37,092 nucleotides of DNA, taken from IMG/VR virus record IMGVR_UViG_3300037458_000301, positions 1 through 37,092 of that record; one strand, 5' to 3'. A model generated the notes under the pieces. The model made no database searches and was not told the DNA's origin. It saw only the letters and a program-made list of their open reading frames with translations. Below, one piece after another: positions 9,869 through 36,676 of this stretch; positions within the stretch are counted from its first letter, which is position 1; every line of letters starts with the position of its first letter. The position numbers and the translations under genes are program-made. The stretch is from a virus. Taxonomy: Duplodnaviria; Caudoviricetes.

Positions 9869-9987
9869 CACACCCCCAAGCGTTCAGCAATGGCTCTCAA
9901 GGCCGTGTTGATCTGCTCTTGGGTTGCGTCTGGGTGCAGGTGAAGCCAAGTGTTTTTTTCGGCCTCATATCGCTGGTACTTGTCCAT
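9868..9987 (-). CDS. 39-aa protein MDKYQRYEAEK...IAERLGV (not in ORF track)
   Basis: GGAG RBS; TGATG coupling to the initiator gene. Confidence 0.75.
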   Translation of the reverse strand: MDKYQRYEAEKNTWLHLHPDATQEQINTALRAIAERLGV

Positions 9988-9998
9988 TTCTAAACTCC

Positions 9999-10105
9999 AA
10001 AAAGAAAACCCCTGAAAGCTGGTAGGACAAGTACCAAACTTTCAAGGGTCAGCCATTGACGGCTTAGATGTATCTGCACCTTGTCCGTGCAACATCTAAA
10101 CCGTC
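9999..10105 (-). ncRNA. Two-hairpin cis element with complementary loops; the second hairpin is an intrinsic terminator
   Basis: Loop GGACAAG (10086-10080) versus loop CTTGTCC (10031-10025); U tract follows hairpin 2. Confidence 0.75.
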
Positions 10106-10374: not shown

Positions 10375-10425
10375 TTGCCACGCTTGCAAAATTCTGTTGT
10401 AGAATTGAGGCTCAACAACAGGAGA
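10375..10425 (+). promoter_or_regulatory. Repeated promoter/operator/RBS module, copy B (rightward early promoter)
   Basis: TGCAAAATTCTGTTGTA overlapping TAGAAT, then GAGGCTCAACAACAGGAGA. Confidence 0.75.
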
Positions 10426-10430
10426 TACAG

Positions 10431-10691
10431 ATGATGAAAATGCAAACAGGACACGTTATAACAGCGGACGTTAAGGAGGTCAAAGGCCGATCAATCAGTT
10501 TTGTAAACGAGGATGGTCGTGTGGTGTATGAGGTCAGGATTAACGAGGACATGAGCCTTGAGGTGCGAGGTGTTGATGTAATAAAGCGTGATGGTGTTTT
10601 GTATTCTGAGTGCTTGAGCATCCGTCCGCGCTACTCAAATTCGGTTGAAATCCACCGTTGCGTTTACCCAGAAACCGGAGAGAAAAAATGA
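10431..10691 (+). CDS. Hypothetical early protein
   Basis: AGGAG RBS. Confidence 0.8.
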   Translation: MMKMQTGHVITADVKEVKGRSISFVNEDGRVVYEVRINEDMSLEVRGVDVIKRDGVLYSECLSIRPRYSNSVEIHRCVYPETGEKK

Positions 10692-11968: not shown

Positions 11969-12304
11969 ATGAGCGAAACAAAAGCGGGTCTAAAAACCCA
12001 ATCGTTTGCCCAGACGGAATTTTCGGTCATGCAGTGGGCGACAGACCGAGGAATCTACAAACACGGCACGGCTTTGGGGCAGGCCAAAAAAGCATTGTCT
12101 GAAATCCAAGAACTCATTGAAGCAATCGAAGCTGGCGACAAAACCGAGGCCGAACTAGAGGCGGGTGACGTTGTTGTTTGCTTGGTGAACACTTGCACTT
12201 TGTTGGATATTGATTTACGTCAAGCGTTCTACAAGGCTTACAAGAAAATCGAACACAGACGCGGTTTTCTCAATGCCGAAGGCGTTTTTGTGAAAAGTGA
12301 GTGA
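11969..12304 (+). CDS. MazG-like nucleotide pyrophosphohydrolase
   Basis: W..DRGI...Q..K..SE..EL...EAGDVVV...AY.KI..R.G....G.FVK. Confidence 0.85.
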   Translation: MSETKAGLKTQSFAQTEFSVMQWATDRGIYKHGTALGQAKKALSEIQELIEAIEAGDKTEAELEAGDVVVCLVNTCTLLDIDLRQAFYKAYKKIEHRRGFLNAEGVFVKSE

Positions 12305-12316
12305 GGTATAATGTGT

Positions 12317-12364
12317 TGTGGCTAGGAGGCATCCGAACCGCCGTCTAATCCCCGGCTTGCCACA
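12317..12364 (+). ncRNA. C4-antisense-like RNA upstream of HNH gene 1
   Basis: TGTGGC/GCCACA closing stem with two inner hairpins; loop TCTAATCCC; TATAAT at 12307-12312. Confidence 0.7.
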
Positions 12365-12395
12365 CACTTCAAGGGATTGTTCAAGGATTAGAACG

Positions 12396-12890
12396 ATGGA
12401 AAACGCAAACCTTTGCGGCGACTTTCAGCCAAGTAAAAAACCCACCAACGGGGCGCATTTATACAAACACGGGATGATGAAGCACCCCTTGTATAGCCAA
12501 TGGAGGGGCATGATGCAACGATGCCAAGACCCAAACCAAAAGCAATACAAATACTATGGCGGCAAAGGCATAAAGGTTTGCGATAGGTGGCACGATTTCC
12601 CATCGTATTTGGCGGACATGGGGATGCCATTGGAAGGCCAAACCATTGATCGAATCGACAGCAACAAAGACTACTGCCCAGAGAATTGCCGATGGGTTAG
12701 CCGTAGTGAACAGATGAAAAACAGGTCAAACGCCGTTTTGATCACTTTTAACGGAACAACTAAAAACCTTATAGATTGGGCGCGAAGTATTGGCATCAAC
12801 AAATCAACACTCAAATATCGTCTGAGAAATTGGCCGATGGAAAAAGCACTAGCACACACACGTTTTAAGACTAATGGAGAAGCAATATGA
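12396..12890 (+). CDS. HNH homing endonuclease
   Basis: W..M.QRC...YGGKGIKVCDRW...TIDRID...Y.PENCRW; ATG 12396 follows an AAGGA RBS. Confidence 0.9.
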   Translation: MENANLCGDFQPSKKPTNGAHLYKHGMMKHPLYSQWRGMMQRCQDPNQKQYKYYGGKGIKVCDRWHDFPSYLADMGMPLEGQTIDRIDSNKDYCPENCRWVSRSEQMKNRSNAVLITFNGTTKNLIDWARSIGINKSTLKYRLRNWPMEKALAHTRFKTNGEAI

Positions 12891-13165
12891 GCTATCAACC
12901 CAAAGAAGGCAGTGGAGCCTTGTTTAAATCAGACAAAGGCGACAACCCCTCACGGCCCGACTATCGGGGCGACATCATGCTTGACGGCGTGATGTATGAG
13001 ATCAGCGGCTGGATTAAACCCAAGCCAAGCAACCCCGCAGAAAAGTTTATGAGCTTGTCCGGCAAGCCAAAACAAGCCCGACAGCAAGCCCCTGCACCAC
13101 GTCAAGCGCCAGCGGCCAAGCAAGCCTTTGACCCGTTTGACGACCCAAACGGATGCCCGTTTTGA
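12887..13165 (+). CDS. Putative single-stranded DNA-binding protein
   Basis: GALF...PDYRG...W core, Gln/Pro linker, acidic tail ending in PF. Confidence 0.65.
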   Translation: MSYQPKEGSGALFKSDKGDNPSRPDYRGDIMLDGVMYEISGWIKPKPSNPAEKFMSLSGKPKQARQQAPAPRQAPAAKQAFDPFDDPNGCPF

Positions 13166-13223: not shown

Positions 13224-13265
13224 TGCAAAGTTTTATTGTATAGTAGAGGCTTCAACAACAGGAGA
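13224..13265 (+). promoter_or_regulatory. Repeated promoter/operator/RBS module, copy C
   Basis: TGCAAAGTTTTATTGTA/TATAGT; 13236-13265 identical to 18930-18959. Confidence 0.8.
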
Positions 13266-13269
13266 AAAC

Positions 13270-13404
13270 ATGAAACACAAACCAATGGCAACCTACAACA
13301 GTGATGACCGCAAAGCCGACTTGATGGTGATTGTGGTCTGTGTACTGGCTTCGATTGCAATCGCTGTTATGGCCTACTTTGGCTGGTTGCCGGGCGGTGT
13401 ATGA
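13270..13404 (+). CDS. 44-aa single-TM protein (not in ORF track)
   Basis: AGGAG RBS; MKHKPM...VIVVCVLASIAIAVMAYFGW; ATGA coupling. Confidence 0.75.
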   Translation: MKHKPMATYNSDDRKADLMVIVVCVLASIAIAVMAYFGWLPGGV

Positions 13405-18157: not shown

Positions 18158-18185
18158 TTTACACCCTATTGAATTGTGATACAAT
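18158..18185 (+). promoter_or_regulatory. Sigma70-like promoter of HNH cassette 2
   Basis: TTTACA-N16-TACAAT with extended TG. Confidence 0.7.
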
Positions 18186-18191
18186 CACGCC

Positions 18192-18239
18192 GTGGCTAGG
18201 TTTAGCGGCCAAAAAGCGGATTGAATCCCCGCCTGCCAC
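18192..18239 (+). ncRNA. C4-antisense-like RNA upstream of HNH gene 2
   Basis: GTGGC/GCCAC closing stem; GGT-TTAGCG-GCC and GCGG-ATTGAATCC-CCGC hairpins. Confidence 0.75.
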
Positions 18240-18272
18240 ACACTTCAGGATTCTCGACATGAAAGATTCATC

Positions 18273-18758
18273 ATGACAGAGCAAGAGCTTTACACCCGCG
18301 CCCACGAGTTTTTCAACTTGGTTGACGGCAAACTTATATGGAAAATTAACCGCAAACGATGCAAGATTGGCATGAGAGCCGGGTGTGTAAATCCAAGAAA
18401 CTTTTATCGCCAAGTCTATATTGACAACAAAAAATACATGGAGCATCGCATCATTTTTTTGATGCATCACGGGTATTTGCCACCAATGGTTGACCACATC
18501 AATCAGGTTGTTGGCGACAATAGAATTGAAAACTTGAGGGCCGCGAATAAGTATACAAACCAGTACAACACCGCTGCAAAATCTAATGGATGCGGTTTAA
18601 AAGGCGCTCGTTTCCACAAGCCGGGCAATGTCTGGATTAGCAGCATACGAGTGCTGACTAAGCGTATTCACCTTGGCAGCTTCAAGACAGCCGAAGAAGC
18701 CCACGAAGCATACAAAAAAGCAGCCTTAGAACTTCACGGAGAGTTTGCTCGGTTTTAA
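18273..18758 (+). CDS. HNH endonuclease with C-terminal AP2-like DNA-binding domain
   Basis: HRII...VDHIN....DNRIENLR; KG......W...I......HLG.F.T.EEA..AY...A..LHGEFA. Confidence 0.92.
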   Translation: MTEQELYTRAHEFFNLVDGKLIWKINRKRCKIGMRAGCVNPRNFYRQVYIDNKKYMEHRIIFLMHHGYLPPMVDHINQVVGDNRIENLRAANKYTNQYNTAAKSNGCGLKGARFHKPGNVWISSIRVLTKRIHLGSFKTAEEAHEAYKKAALELHGEFARF

Positions 18759-18909: not shown

Positions 18910-18959
18910 TTCACCACTGCAAAAATATGTTGTATAGTAGAGGCTTCAACAACAGGAGA
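18910..18959 (+). promoter_or_regulatory. Repeated promoter/operator/RBS module, copy D
   Basis: TTCACC-N17-TATAGT; TGCAAAAATATGTTGTA; AGAGGCTTCAACAACAGGAGA. Confidence 0.8.
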
Positions 18960-18963
18960 TAGT

Positions 18964-19524
18964 ATGACCACAATTTACAACATCATTTGGCGCTTTTGCT
19001 TTGCAGTTTCTTGCATTTTGTCTTTGATTTTTATGGCGGCTTCGATCTCAAGCGAGACTACAACATCAGCAAGCTACAAAATCTATTCAACAGACATAAA
19101 TGACCGACTCAACTTGGTTGGGGATTGCAAAAAAGAAGATGCTCAAAAATTCTTGACATATACCACTAGTAATGATCGCAGCGTTTTTGTAAACCTTTGC
19201 TTTGCGGCGCACGCTTTCAAAGGAGAAAATGGCAAAGAAGTGATGCTTGTGCCATTTAAAACCAACGAAAAAAACGATTACTGGTGGGGCAACACGCCTT
19301 ACAGCACAGAAGTTATGGAATACACCCAAAAAATGGCTGATTCATTCAAAATGACCGAGCTAGAAGAATCAGTTATTGAAGGCAAATACTGGGATGCCAA
19401 GTGGTCTGACATAGCCCAAATGACAGGTGGCGTTATTGCTGGAAACGCCATTTTTTGGGCTTTGTTTTACGTGATGGTTTGGGTTTTTGTTGGGTTTAAG
19501 AAAAAAGAACGTCAACAAACTTAA
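18964..19524 (+). CDS. Moron-like membrane protein (N- and C-terminal TM around a large loop)
   Basis: AT-rich; own promoter; antisense to the late operon. Confidence 0.8.
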   Translation: MTTIYNIIWRFCFAVSCILSLIFMAASISSETTTSASYKIYSTDINDRLNLVGDCKKEDAQKFLTYTTSNDRSVFVNLCFAAHAFKGENGKEVMLVPFKTNEKNDYWWGNTPYSTEVMEYTQKMADSFKMTELEESVIEGKYWDAKWSDIAQMTGGVIAGNAIFWALFYVMVWVFVGFKKKERQQT

Positions 19525-36311: not shown

Positions 36312-36676
36312 TTGCCCTTAATTGTGTCTTTCACCTCTTTAGCCACTTCAACAATGTCTTTATTGTCCATGCGGTCAAAGAACTTCACGAAAGCCTTGAT
36401 TACCGTAAACGAAACCAATCCAATTGCGCCGCCAATTGCCATGCTTGTATTGACATCATTGGGATTCATGCCCATGTAAACCGCTAAAGCACCGCCAAAG
36501 ATGATGGATATGCCCACCGCACTACCGCCCACGATACAAGCCGTTGCCGCACGGCCATAACCATCAAGGGCAGGGGTTTTGCGAAGGAATAGAACCAGCA
36601 ACGACATAAACAAAGCACTCAAGCCATAGTTTAACTTTGCAATGATGAAAGAGATAGTCGTTGATAGCGGTTCCAT
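36308..36676 (-). CDS. Holin-like membrane protein (about 3 TM, charged C-tail)
   Basis: Hydrophobic segments with Lys/Asp-rich tail; AAGGA RBS. Confidence 0.7.
   Translation of the reverse strand: MEPLSTTISFIIAKLNYGLSALFMSLLVLFLRKTPALDGYGRAATACIVGGSAVGISIIFGGALAVYMGMNPNDVNTSMAIGGAIGLVSFTVIKAFVKFFDRMDNKDIVEVAKEVKDTIKGK

Follow-up and report, generated by a model that had tools for sequence, protein, structure and literature searches.

An int-alpA-family leader RNA with two tandem targets, likely a portable and self-limiting brake on translation, ahead of a predicted viral HNH endonuclease gene

Why should a predicted HNH endonuclease gene be preceded by a small structured RNA whose loop is complementary to two sites on the same transcript, one of them over the ribosome site? 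The question is raised by a 37,092-nucleotide (nt) virus record (Duplodnaviria; Caudoviricetes; IMGVR_UViG_3300037458_000301), the whole of which was analysed and is called the window here. Two such leaders occur in it, copy 1 at 12317 and copy 2 at 18192, each followed by a different HNH gene (HNH 1 and HNH 2). We find that both can be placed in the Rfam family int-alpA, copy 2 as a type B member and copy 1 in a branch that we call subtype A, and that an int-alpA-family leader with two tandem targets likely acts as a translational brake on the downstream gene, one that is portable and limits itself. Rechecking bore out every coordinate that a preliminary description of this DNA had given for the elements of copy 1, which are the following:

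12307 to 12312, plus strand: -10 hexamer TATAAT, beginning 2 nt past the stop codon of a MazG-like gene
12317 to 12364, plus strand: putative three-way-junction leader RNA of int-alpA subtype A (P1, UA, P2, GAACC, P3, UU), from the fold, helix covariation and a model built on type B only
12317 to 12322 with 12359 to 12364, plus strand: P1 helix, from the fold
12325 to 12334, plus strand: P2 hairpin GGA-GGCA-TCC, with a loop that is invariant in subtype A
12344 to 12352, plus strand: 9-nt specificity loop TCTAATCCC of P3, closed by the stem GCCG/CGGC
12373 to 12378, plus strand: target 1, GGGATT, which matches 6 of the 9 loop nt at the loop's 3' edge and is a putative parking site
12383 to 12387, plus strand: Shine-Dalgarno-like AAGGA upstream of the ATG at 12396
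12385 to 12392, plus strand: target 2, GGATTAGA, pairing with 8 of 9 loop nt and overlapping the AAGGA

A 49-nt piece carrying copy 1 adopts the three-way junction as both its minimum free energy and its centroid structure, its stability alone being ordinary (z -1.17). When the downstream 45 nt were shuffled, a match of at least 8 nt to the loop arose in 41 of 20,000 shuffles, and a match of 8 together with a second match of 6 in one of 20,000. BLASTN of copy 1 against cultured phages returned chance-level matches only.

The evidence that carries our reading comes from relatives of the leader. The collection of 143 pattern matches reduced to 120 distinct leaders, 117 with enough downstream sequence and 70 after dereplication. 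The P3 loop matched at least 5 nt of its own downstream 45 nt in 66 of the 70, against 996 of 4,830 combinations (21%) when loops were swapped between leaders; two separate sites for the leader's own loop were present in 52 of 70, against 210 of 4,830 (4%) for swapped loops, and none of 20,000 loop-swap permutations reached the observed mean. Controls gave 10 of 70 for the 45 nt examined upstream and 15 of 69 for the coding region. Within subtype A, which has 8 distinct loops, the true assignment of loops was the single best of 40,320 permutations. Near-identical leaders (L041 and L107 versus L050, L113 and L140) differ by single-base loop changes that are mirrored in both targets, and a leader from a cellular genome (L223) carries a new loop with two new targets. 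The expectation that complementarity between loop and target would be kept in homologs was thus sustained by this survey and, judged from sequence, the leader is a real and strongly covarying regulatory RNA.

Since loop and targets make short inverted and direct repeats, it should also be considered that they act as DNA-level repeats (an operator or recombination sites), or that they are a non-functional by-product of cassette movement. We regard this as very improbable. The 117 leaders hold 76 distinct loops, which speaks against one protein reader; a same-sense control matched in 6 of 70; and the helices, which covary in both of our alignments (A1 and A2), show compensatory changes and G-U pairs, with 205 cells altered on both sides against 79.5 in shuffled alignments.

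The two targets are arranged in a regular manner. In 42 of 58 leaders target 1 pairs flush with the loop at its 3' edge, and in 45 of 58 it leaves 2 to 3 loop nt free, a pattern like the geometry of H-type pseudoknots; for target 2 the register is one base off in 39 of 55. Of 47 leaders, 21 have their targets 14 nt apart and 43 have them 11 to 16 nt apart. Target 2 overlaps the best anti-Shine-Dalgarno duplex in 50 of the 60 leaders scored, a count that leaves out 10 of the 70 (short matches or no start call) and uses start codons picked heuristically. The two sites are similarly strong, with median energies of -8.1 and -7.45 kcal/mol.

To which family does the leader belong? It had been presented as a C4-like RNA and as a candidate for an undescribed system. 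Neither label survived: the C4 covariance model RF01695 gave no match at E ≤ 10, and the RNA family is already catalogued as int-alpA (RF02996; Rfam type 'Gene; sRNA'; gathering cut-off 35.8 bits), a motif reportedly owed to Weinberg et al. 2017. Copy 2 scored 30.5 bits against RF02996, below the cut-off, and copy 1 gave no match at E ≤ 1. Pattern scans of viral sequences found 15 loci like copy 1 and at least 121 like copy 2 (about 610 estimated), sets in which the conserved junction letters were partly fixed by the search patterns; a metagenome scan gave 2 loci, one of which (L220) lacks the closing stems and is not a real element, and a genome scan gave one, the cellular L223. When 20 loci were run against Rfam, all 13 of type B matched int-alpA, 12 of them above the cut-off, and none of the 7 of subtype A matched at E ≤ 5. 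A covariance model built only from 62 type-B leaders, part of whose signal lies in those pattern-fixed junction letters, nevertheless found copy 1 at 16.7 bits (E 0.048; best background 10.7) and all 15 subtype-A viral loci at 14.2 to 26.4 bits, above background; L221, at 9.6 bits, fell within it. Found by a model derived from type B and yet unmatched in Rfam, copy 1 is, as we read it, a divergent int-alpA subtype that the Rfam threshold misses.

The order P1-UA-P2-linker-P3-linker of the int-alpA three-way junction, with its junction letters, recurs in the window copies according to folds and covariation. Against the consensus linker GAAAAG and 3' junction CCGCCUG, copy 1 has GAACCG and CGGCUUG, and copy 2 has AAAAAG and CCGCCUG. 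Subtype A is further set apart by its invariant GGA-GGCA-TCC P2 and its GAAC(C) linker; GGCA was still present in 14 of 14 subtype-A hits when the P2 loop was left free in the search. The scaffold tail ACACACTTCA shared by the window's copies does not hold as a general feature, the scaffold pattern proposed with it finding 0 loci in viral_contigs. The Rfam model, for its part, stops inside target 1 and depicts no pairing between loop and targets. Literature searches found no described int-alpA mechanism or functional study, the supplement of the presumed source paper (PMC5737381) lying outside their coverage and possibly noting the pairing; the term 'alpA' is absent from its main text. In PMC12370729 and PMC13612085 int-alpA is only listed or the name means the genes, and the motif table and supplement of PMC2864571 mention C4 and c4-a1b1.

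What stands behind these leaders? The scan covered 82 of 111 downstream proteins, near-duplicates and short pieces being left out. Thirty belong to HNH, endonuclease VII or homing-endonuclease families (4 reached through HNH 2), and 23 are replication initiators, primases, helicases, methyltransferases, tail chaperones, portal, Rha or integrase proteins; 4 fall in unknown families and 25 had no match. Among relatives of HNH 1 the leader is carried by 1 of 40, and among those of HNH 2 by 5 of 43. The earlier idea of an HNH-specific system was rejected on account of these other annotated functions and of the few HNH relatives with a leader. Leader and cargo also assort independently, because in L089 the leader of copy 1, its loop and targets unchanged, stands ahead of an HNH gene that shows no similarity to ours, and because several contigs from four public runs cover the leader only and run into differing upstream and downstream sequences.

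As a side observation, one clade of near-identical leaders (L104, L111, L114, L124, L132, L139, L147, L155, L161, L166 and others), present in cultured phages too, precedes many different small unknown open reading frames and marks a gene-exchange slot. A single viral contig, L116, carries two int-alpA leaders (896 to 968 and 1482 to 1551) about 590 nt apart with one gene between them.

Among nuclease loci, 25 of 32 have a -10-like hexamer that ends 6 to 12 nt ahead of the P1 core, as do 6 of 23 other loci, against 2 to 4 of 32 in control windows; a sigma-70 -35 hexamer was searched for at copy 1 and none was found. From the position of the -10 element, transcription of the nuclease cassettes likely starts at the base of P1, so that their RNA would have a primary 5' end, which argues against the processed RNA of the preliminary description. 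This bears directly on a reading in which a processed, diffusing antisense RNA silences both sites, in the manner of c4 of P1/P7 and CI of P4, as an immunity factor or as an RNA antitoxin for the nuclease. The resemblance is real enough in outline, since all are small, three-armed or multi-armed RNAs whose unpaired bases match their own transcription unit. C4 and CI are matured by RNase P. P4 CI arises by processing of a primary transcript, and its pairing partners are seqA and seqC (PMC4825925). We nonetheless hold this reading to be quite unlikely. Beyond the missing match to the C4 model and the probable primary 5' end, the window RNA has 48 nt against 87 model positions for C4, and its outcome is likely translational. 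The targets of c4 and CI lie upstream and downstream and are served by separate elements (a1b1/a2b2; seqA/seqC), whereas the window RNA has one loop for two like targets downstream, and across the family matches in the 45 nt examined upstream are near control levels (10 of 70, against 66 of 70 downstream). Finally, c4 and CI control antirepressor or replication genes for immunity, whereas copy 1 precedes an HNH-like gene and the family's genes are varied, 52 of 82 being without nuclease annotation. The suggested antitoxin or exclusion role gained nothing either: PADLOC gave no defence-system match for HNH 1 or HNH 2, and we found no other evidence of it.

How, then, would the leader act? That pairing of the loop with target 2 damps translation, whatever the route, we consider very probable. 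Two like sites of similar strength at a fixed spacing would call for either a switch or two loops, and we tentatively favour the latter, in which the transcript's own loop occupies target 1 and the loop of a second RNA occupies target 2; we give this route somewhat less than an even chance. Transcription would start at the base of P1, and the loop of the messenger RNA would park on its own target 1 as a pseudoknot while the ribosome site stayed open. Transcripts would then build up, or else a 5' fragment that is closed by P1 and resists decay, until a second copy docked, probably via the P2 loop, and its free loop paired with target 2 and blocked loading of the 30S subunit. The result would be capped or delayed synthesis of dose-sensitive proteins, e.g., freestanding homing endonucleases and replication initiators.

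Docking by P2 is suggested by the loops themselves. Of 47 distinct P2 hairpins, 27 hold a palindrome of at least 4 nt, where shuffling within the loops gave 11.2 ± 2.6 and none of 5,000 shuffles reached the observed count; many different palindromes are found across the family; P3 loops have one in 7 of 70. Several P2 loops are GACG, and in Moloney murine sarcoma virus (MoMuSV) this tetraloop makes a kissing homodimer of two base pairs (PMC7357161). The palindrome excess together with the recurrent GACG favours a second copy docking by P2. The int-alpA family thus shares GACG and other self-complementary apical loops with the kissing loops of MoMuSV and Moloney murine leukaemia virus (MoMuLV), although the retroviral loops (PMC7357161) serve genome dimerisation and not translational control, and copy 1 carries GGCA.

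Several points weigh against the second-copy brake. The GGCA of copy 1, invariant in subtype A, holds only a 2-nt GC palindrome and would be explained by a tertiary or protein contact just as readily as by a kiss, and shuffling the loops left predicted P2 self-duplexes as stable as before (25 of 47). Between P1 and target 1 the linker measures 3 to 16 nt, with no correlation to P1 or loop length, and so gives no firm basis for pairing of target 1 in cis. In a nested fold predicted for a longer copy-1 transcript, the loop already pairs with target 2 within one molecule, and no terminator that would yield a short RNA was found on the plus strand. The junction letters and start codons, as said above, depend in part on search patterns and heuristic calls, and the sign of the regulation is one that we infer.

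Some of these points would suit a switch within one molecule, the loop alternating between target 1 (open) and target 2 (closed) with no second RNA, while folding order during transcription or a junction-bound host factor sets brief or low translation. In its favour, target 1 comes first in transcription. In copy 1 the loop pairs more strongly with target 2 (-10.7 kcal/mol) than with target 1 (-8.4 kcal/mol), the predicted fold of the longer transcript joins the loop to target 2, and a real P2 palindrome is lacking. We think such a switch somewhat unlikely all the same, as it leaves the family-wide excess of P2 palindromes unexplained and, across 60 leaders, target 1 is the stronger in 34 and target 2 in 24; therefore there would be no general drift to the closed state.

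The opposite sign was also weighed. In an activating device the default would be closed at target 2, and a partner RNA would draw the loop to target 1, or a pseudoknot would aid ribosome loading, so that expression rose with transcript number and the nuclease appeared late. The pseudoknot of repZ is a precedent, and short linkers (3 to 16 nt) may keep target 1 beyond reach in cis. IsrK of Gifsy-1 is a leader RNA that acts in trans, as ours would, upon its own long transcript and changes access to the ribosome-binding site, and it activates its operon, albeit through a long helix of about 30 nt (PMC4825925); Rfam searches of the window and leader loci gave no match to IsrK. T4-type homing endonucleases, moreover, are translated late (PMC2988022). 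We rate activation as improbable, because the leader also precedes replication initiators, primases, helicases and methyltransferases, for which a cap would be the simpler reading, and because the flush register at target 1 suits pairing in cis.

A brake on a homing endonuclease would not be without parallel. Structures that sequester the ribosome-binding site are a known restraint on T4-type phage homing endonucleases, and RNA hairpins restrain translation of I-TevI, I-TevII, I-TevIII, segB and Aeh1 mobE (PMC2988022). The hairpins in question are simple ones from which a late promoter gives relief, and seven of the free-standing endonucleases of T4 lack a promoter (PMC2988022), whereas the window cassette brings its own -10 element and a loop of exchangeable specificity with two sites.

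Is this cassette mobile? Its surroundings are:

11969 to 12304: MazG-like gene, left neighbour of cassette 1
12296 to 12896, plus strand: approximate extent of cassette 1, between the MazG-like and SSB-like genes
12396 to 12890, plus strand: HNH 1, a predicted HNH endonuclease of 164 amino acids (open reading frame of 495 nt; annotations phrog_3377 and phrog_374)
12887 to 13165: SSB-like gene, right neighbour of cassette 1

In two runs, contigs with the MazG end diverge from the window at 12295 and continue into tails that closely resemble each other; contigs with the SSB gene diverge at 12897. One 416-nt contig bridges 12295 to 13083 with at most about 280 nt between, less than the 495-nt reading frame; an empty site is therefore probable and not proven, as this is a single bridging contig with the middle letters unseen. 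A search through relatives of the MazG-like neighbour found no empty sites. In contigs of relatives the cassette is thus probably absent or replaced, and the contig evidence agrees with presence and absence between conserved neighbours, as for a freestanding homing endonuclease cassette. The notion of a portable unit in which a -10 element and RNA precede a nuclease gene is upheld by the -10 positions, by L089 and by the contigs departing at 12295 and 12897. HNH 1 itself carries DRID, the usual form of the motif being DHID; it matched no Pfam family, and no relative with a solved structure was found.

The second leader allows specificity to be compared within one genome. Its elements are:

18180 to 18185, plus strand: -10 element TACAAT
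18192 to 18239, plus strand: int-alpA type B junction, with loop ATTGAATCC at 18220 to 18228
18248 to 18253 and 18265 to 18270, plus strand: the two targets, before the ATG at 18273
18273 to 18758, plus strand: HNH 2, a predicted HNH_3 + AP2 endonuclease of 161 amino acids (phrog_99)

HNH 2 lies on the strand opposite to the tail genes on its left, and BLASTP found no similarity between HNH 1 and HNH 2. Pairing energies are -6.1 to -10.7 kcal/mol for cognate loops and targets and -1.3 to -4.6 kcal/mol for crossed ones. The two loops are only partly orthogonal because they have a 5-nt core in common: cross-talk between them is reduced, not absent. Of the orthogonal specificity first claimed, the covariation of loop with targets stands and full orthogonality does not. 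As a separate observation, an identical 14-nt stretch (12358 to 12371 and 18234 to 18247) extends over P1 and the spacer of both copies; the spacer is not conserved across the family, and local exchange between the copies is possible.

The remainder of the window encodes portal, terminase, Nin, primase/helicase, Erf, MazG, SSB-like, lysis, tail and head functions. The best public matches holding its sequence are wetland metagenomes, and no RNA dataset was among the public runs listed as holding it. A second, unrelated leader (9985 to 10105, minus strand), before a short open reading frame and a replication initiator gene, has two long hairpins with complementary 7-nt loops (GGACAAG and CUUGUCC), a third GGACAAG at the downstream AUG and a fold z of -5.43. 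Its scaffold occurs also in L044 to L049 (about 1385 to 1480), L044 with a different complementary loop pair, and stands before HNH-AP2 genes in 6 of 237 loci; Rfam matched it neither in the window nor in the four loci among L044 to L049 that were run. Near its two ends the record carries a direct repeat, 300 nt or longer (1 to 300 and 36322 to 36621; 95% identity), that spans small genes beside the portal gene. A 50-nt unit resembling a -10 element with a ribosome site occurs three times (10385 to 10434, 13224 to 13273 and 18918 to 18967), before different genes and at 62 to 86% identity to a reference copy.

Taken broadly, int-alpA leaders may be a widespread, protein-free self-counting device, in which P2 docking of two copies would let transcript number decide whether the ribosome site is covered, a loop/target code of 5 to 8 nt would keep cassettes partly independent, and selfish nucleases and replication genes would have borrowed the device many times, with subtype A as a branch unseen by Rfam. 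We offer this as a speculative picture that is somewhat less likely than not. The orphan Rfam motif gains a concrete, testable candidate mechanism and a subtype that Rfam misses, and type B by itself would account for about 610 stored viral stretches, as estimated from its scan. The finding bears on how freestanding homing endonucleases that bring their own promoter restrain themselves. If the second-copy model is true, the leader would be a rare case of natural RNA homodimerisation for gene-dosage feedback, in a regulator of 75 nt with exchangeable specificity.
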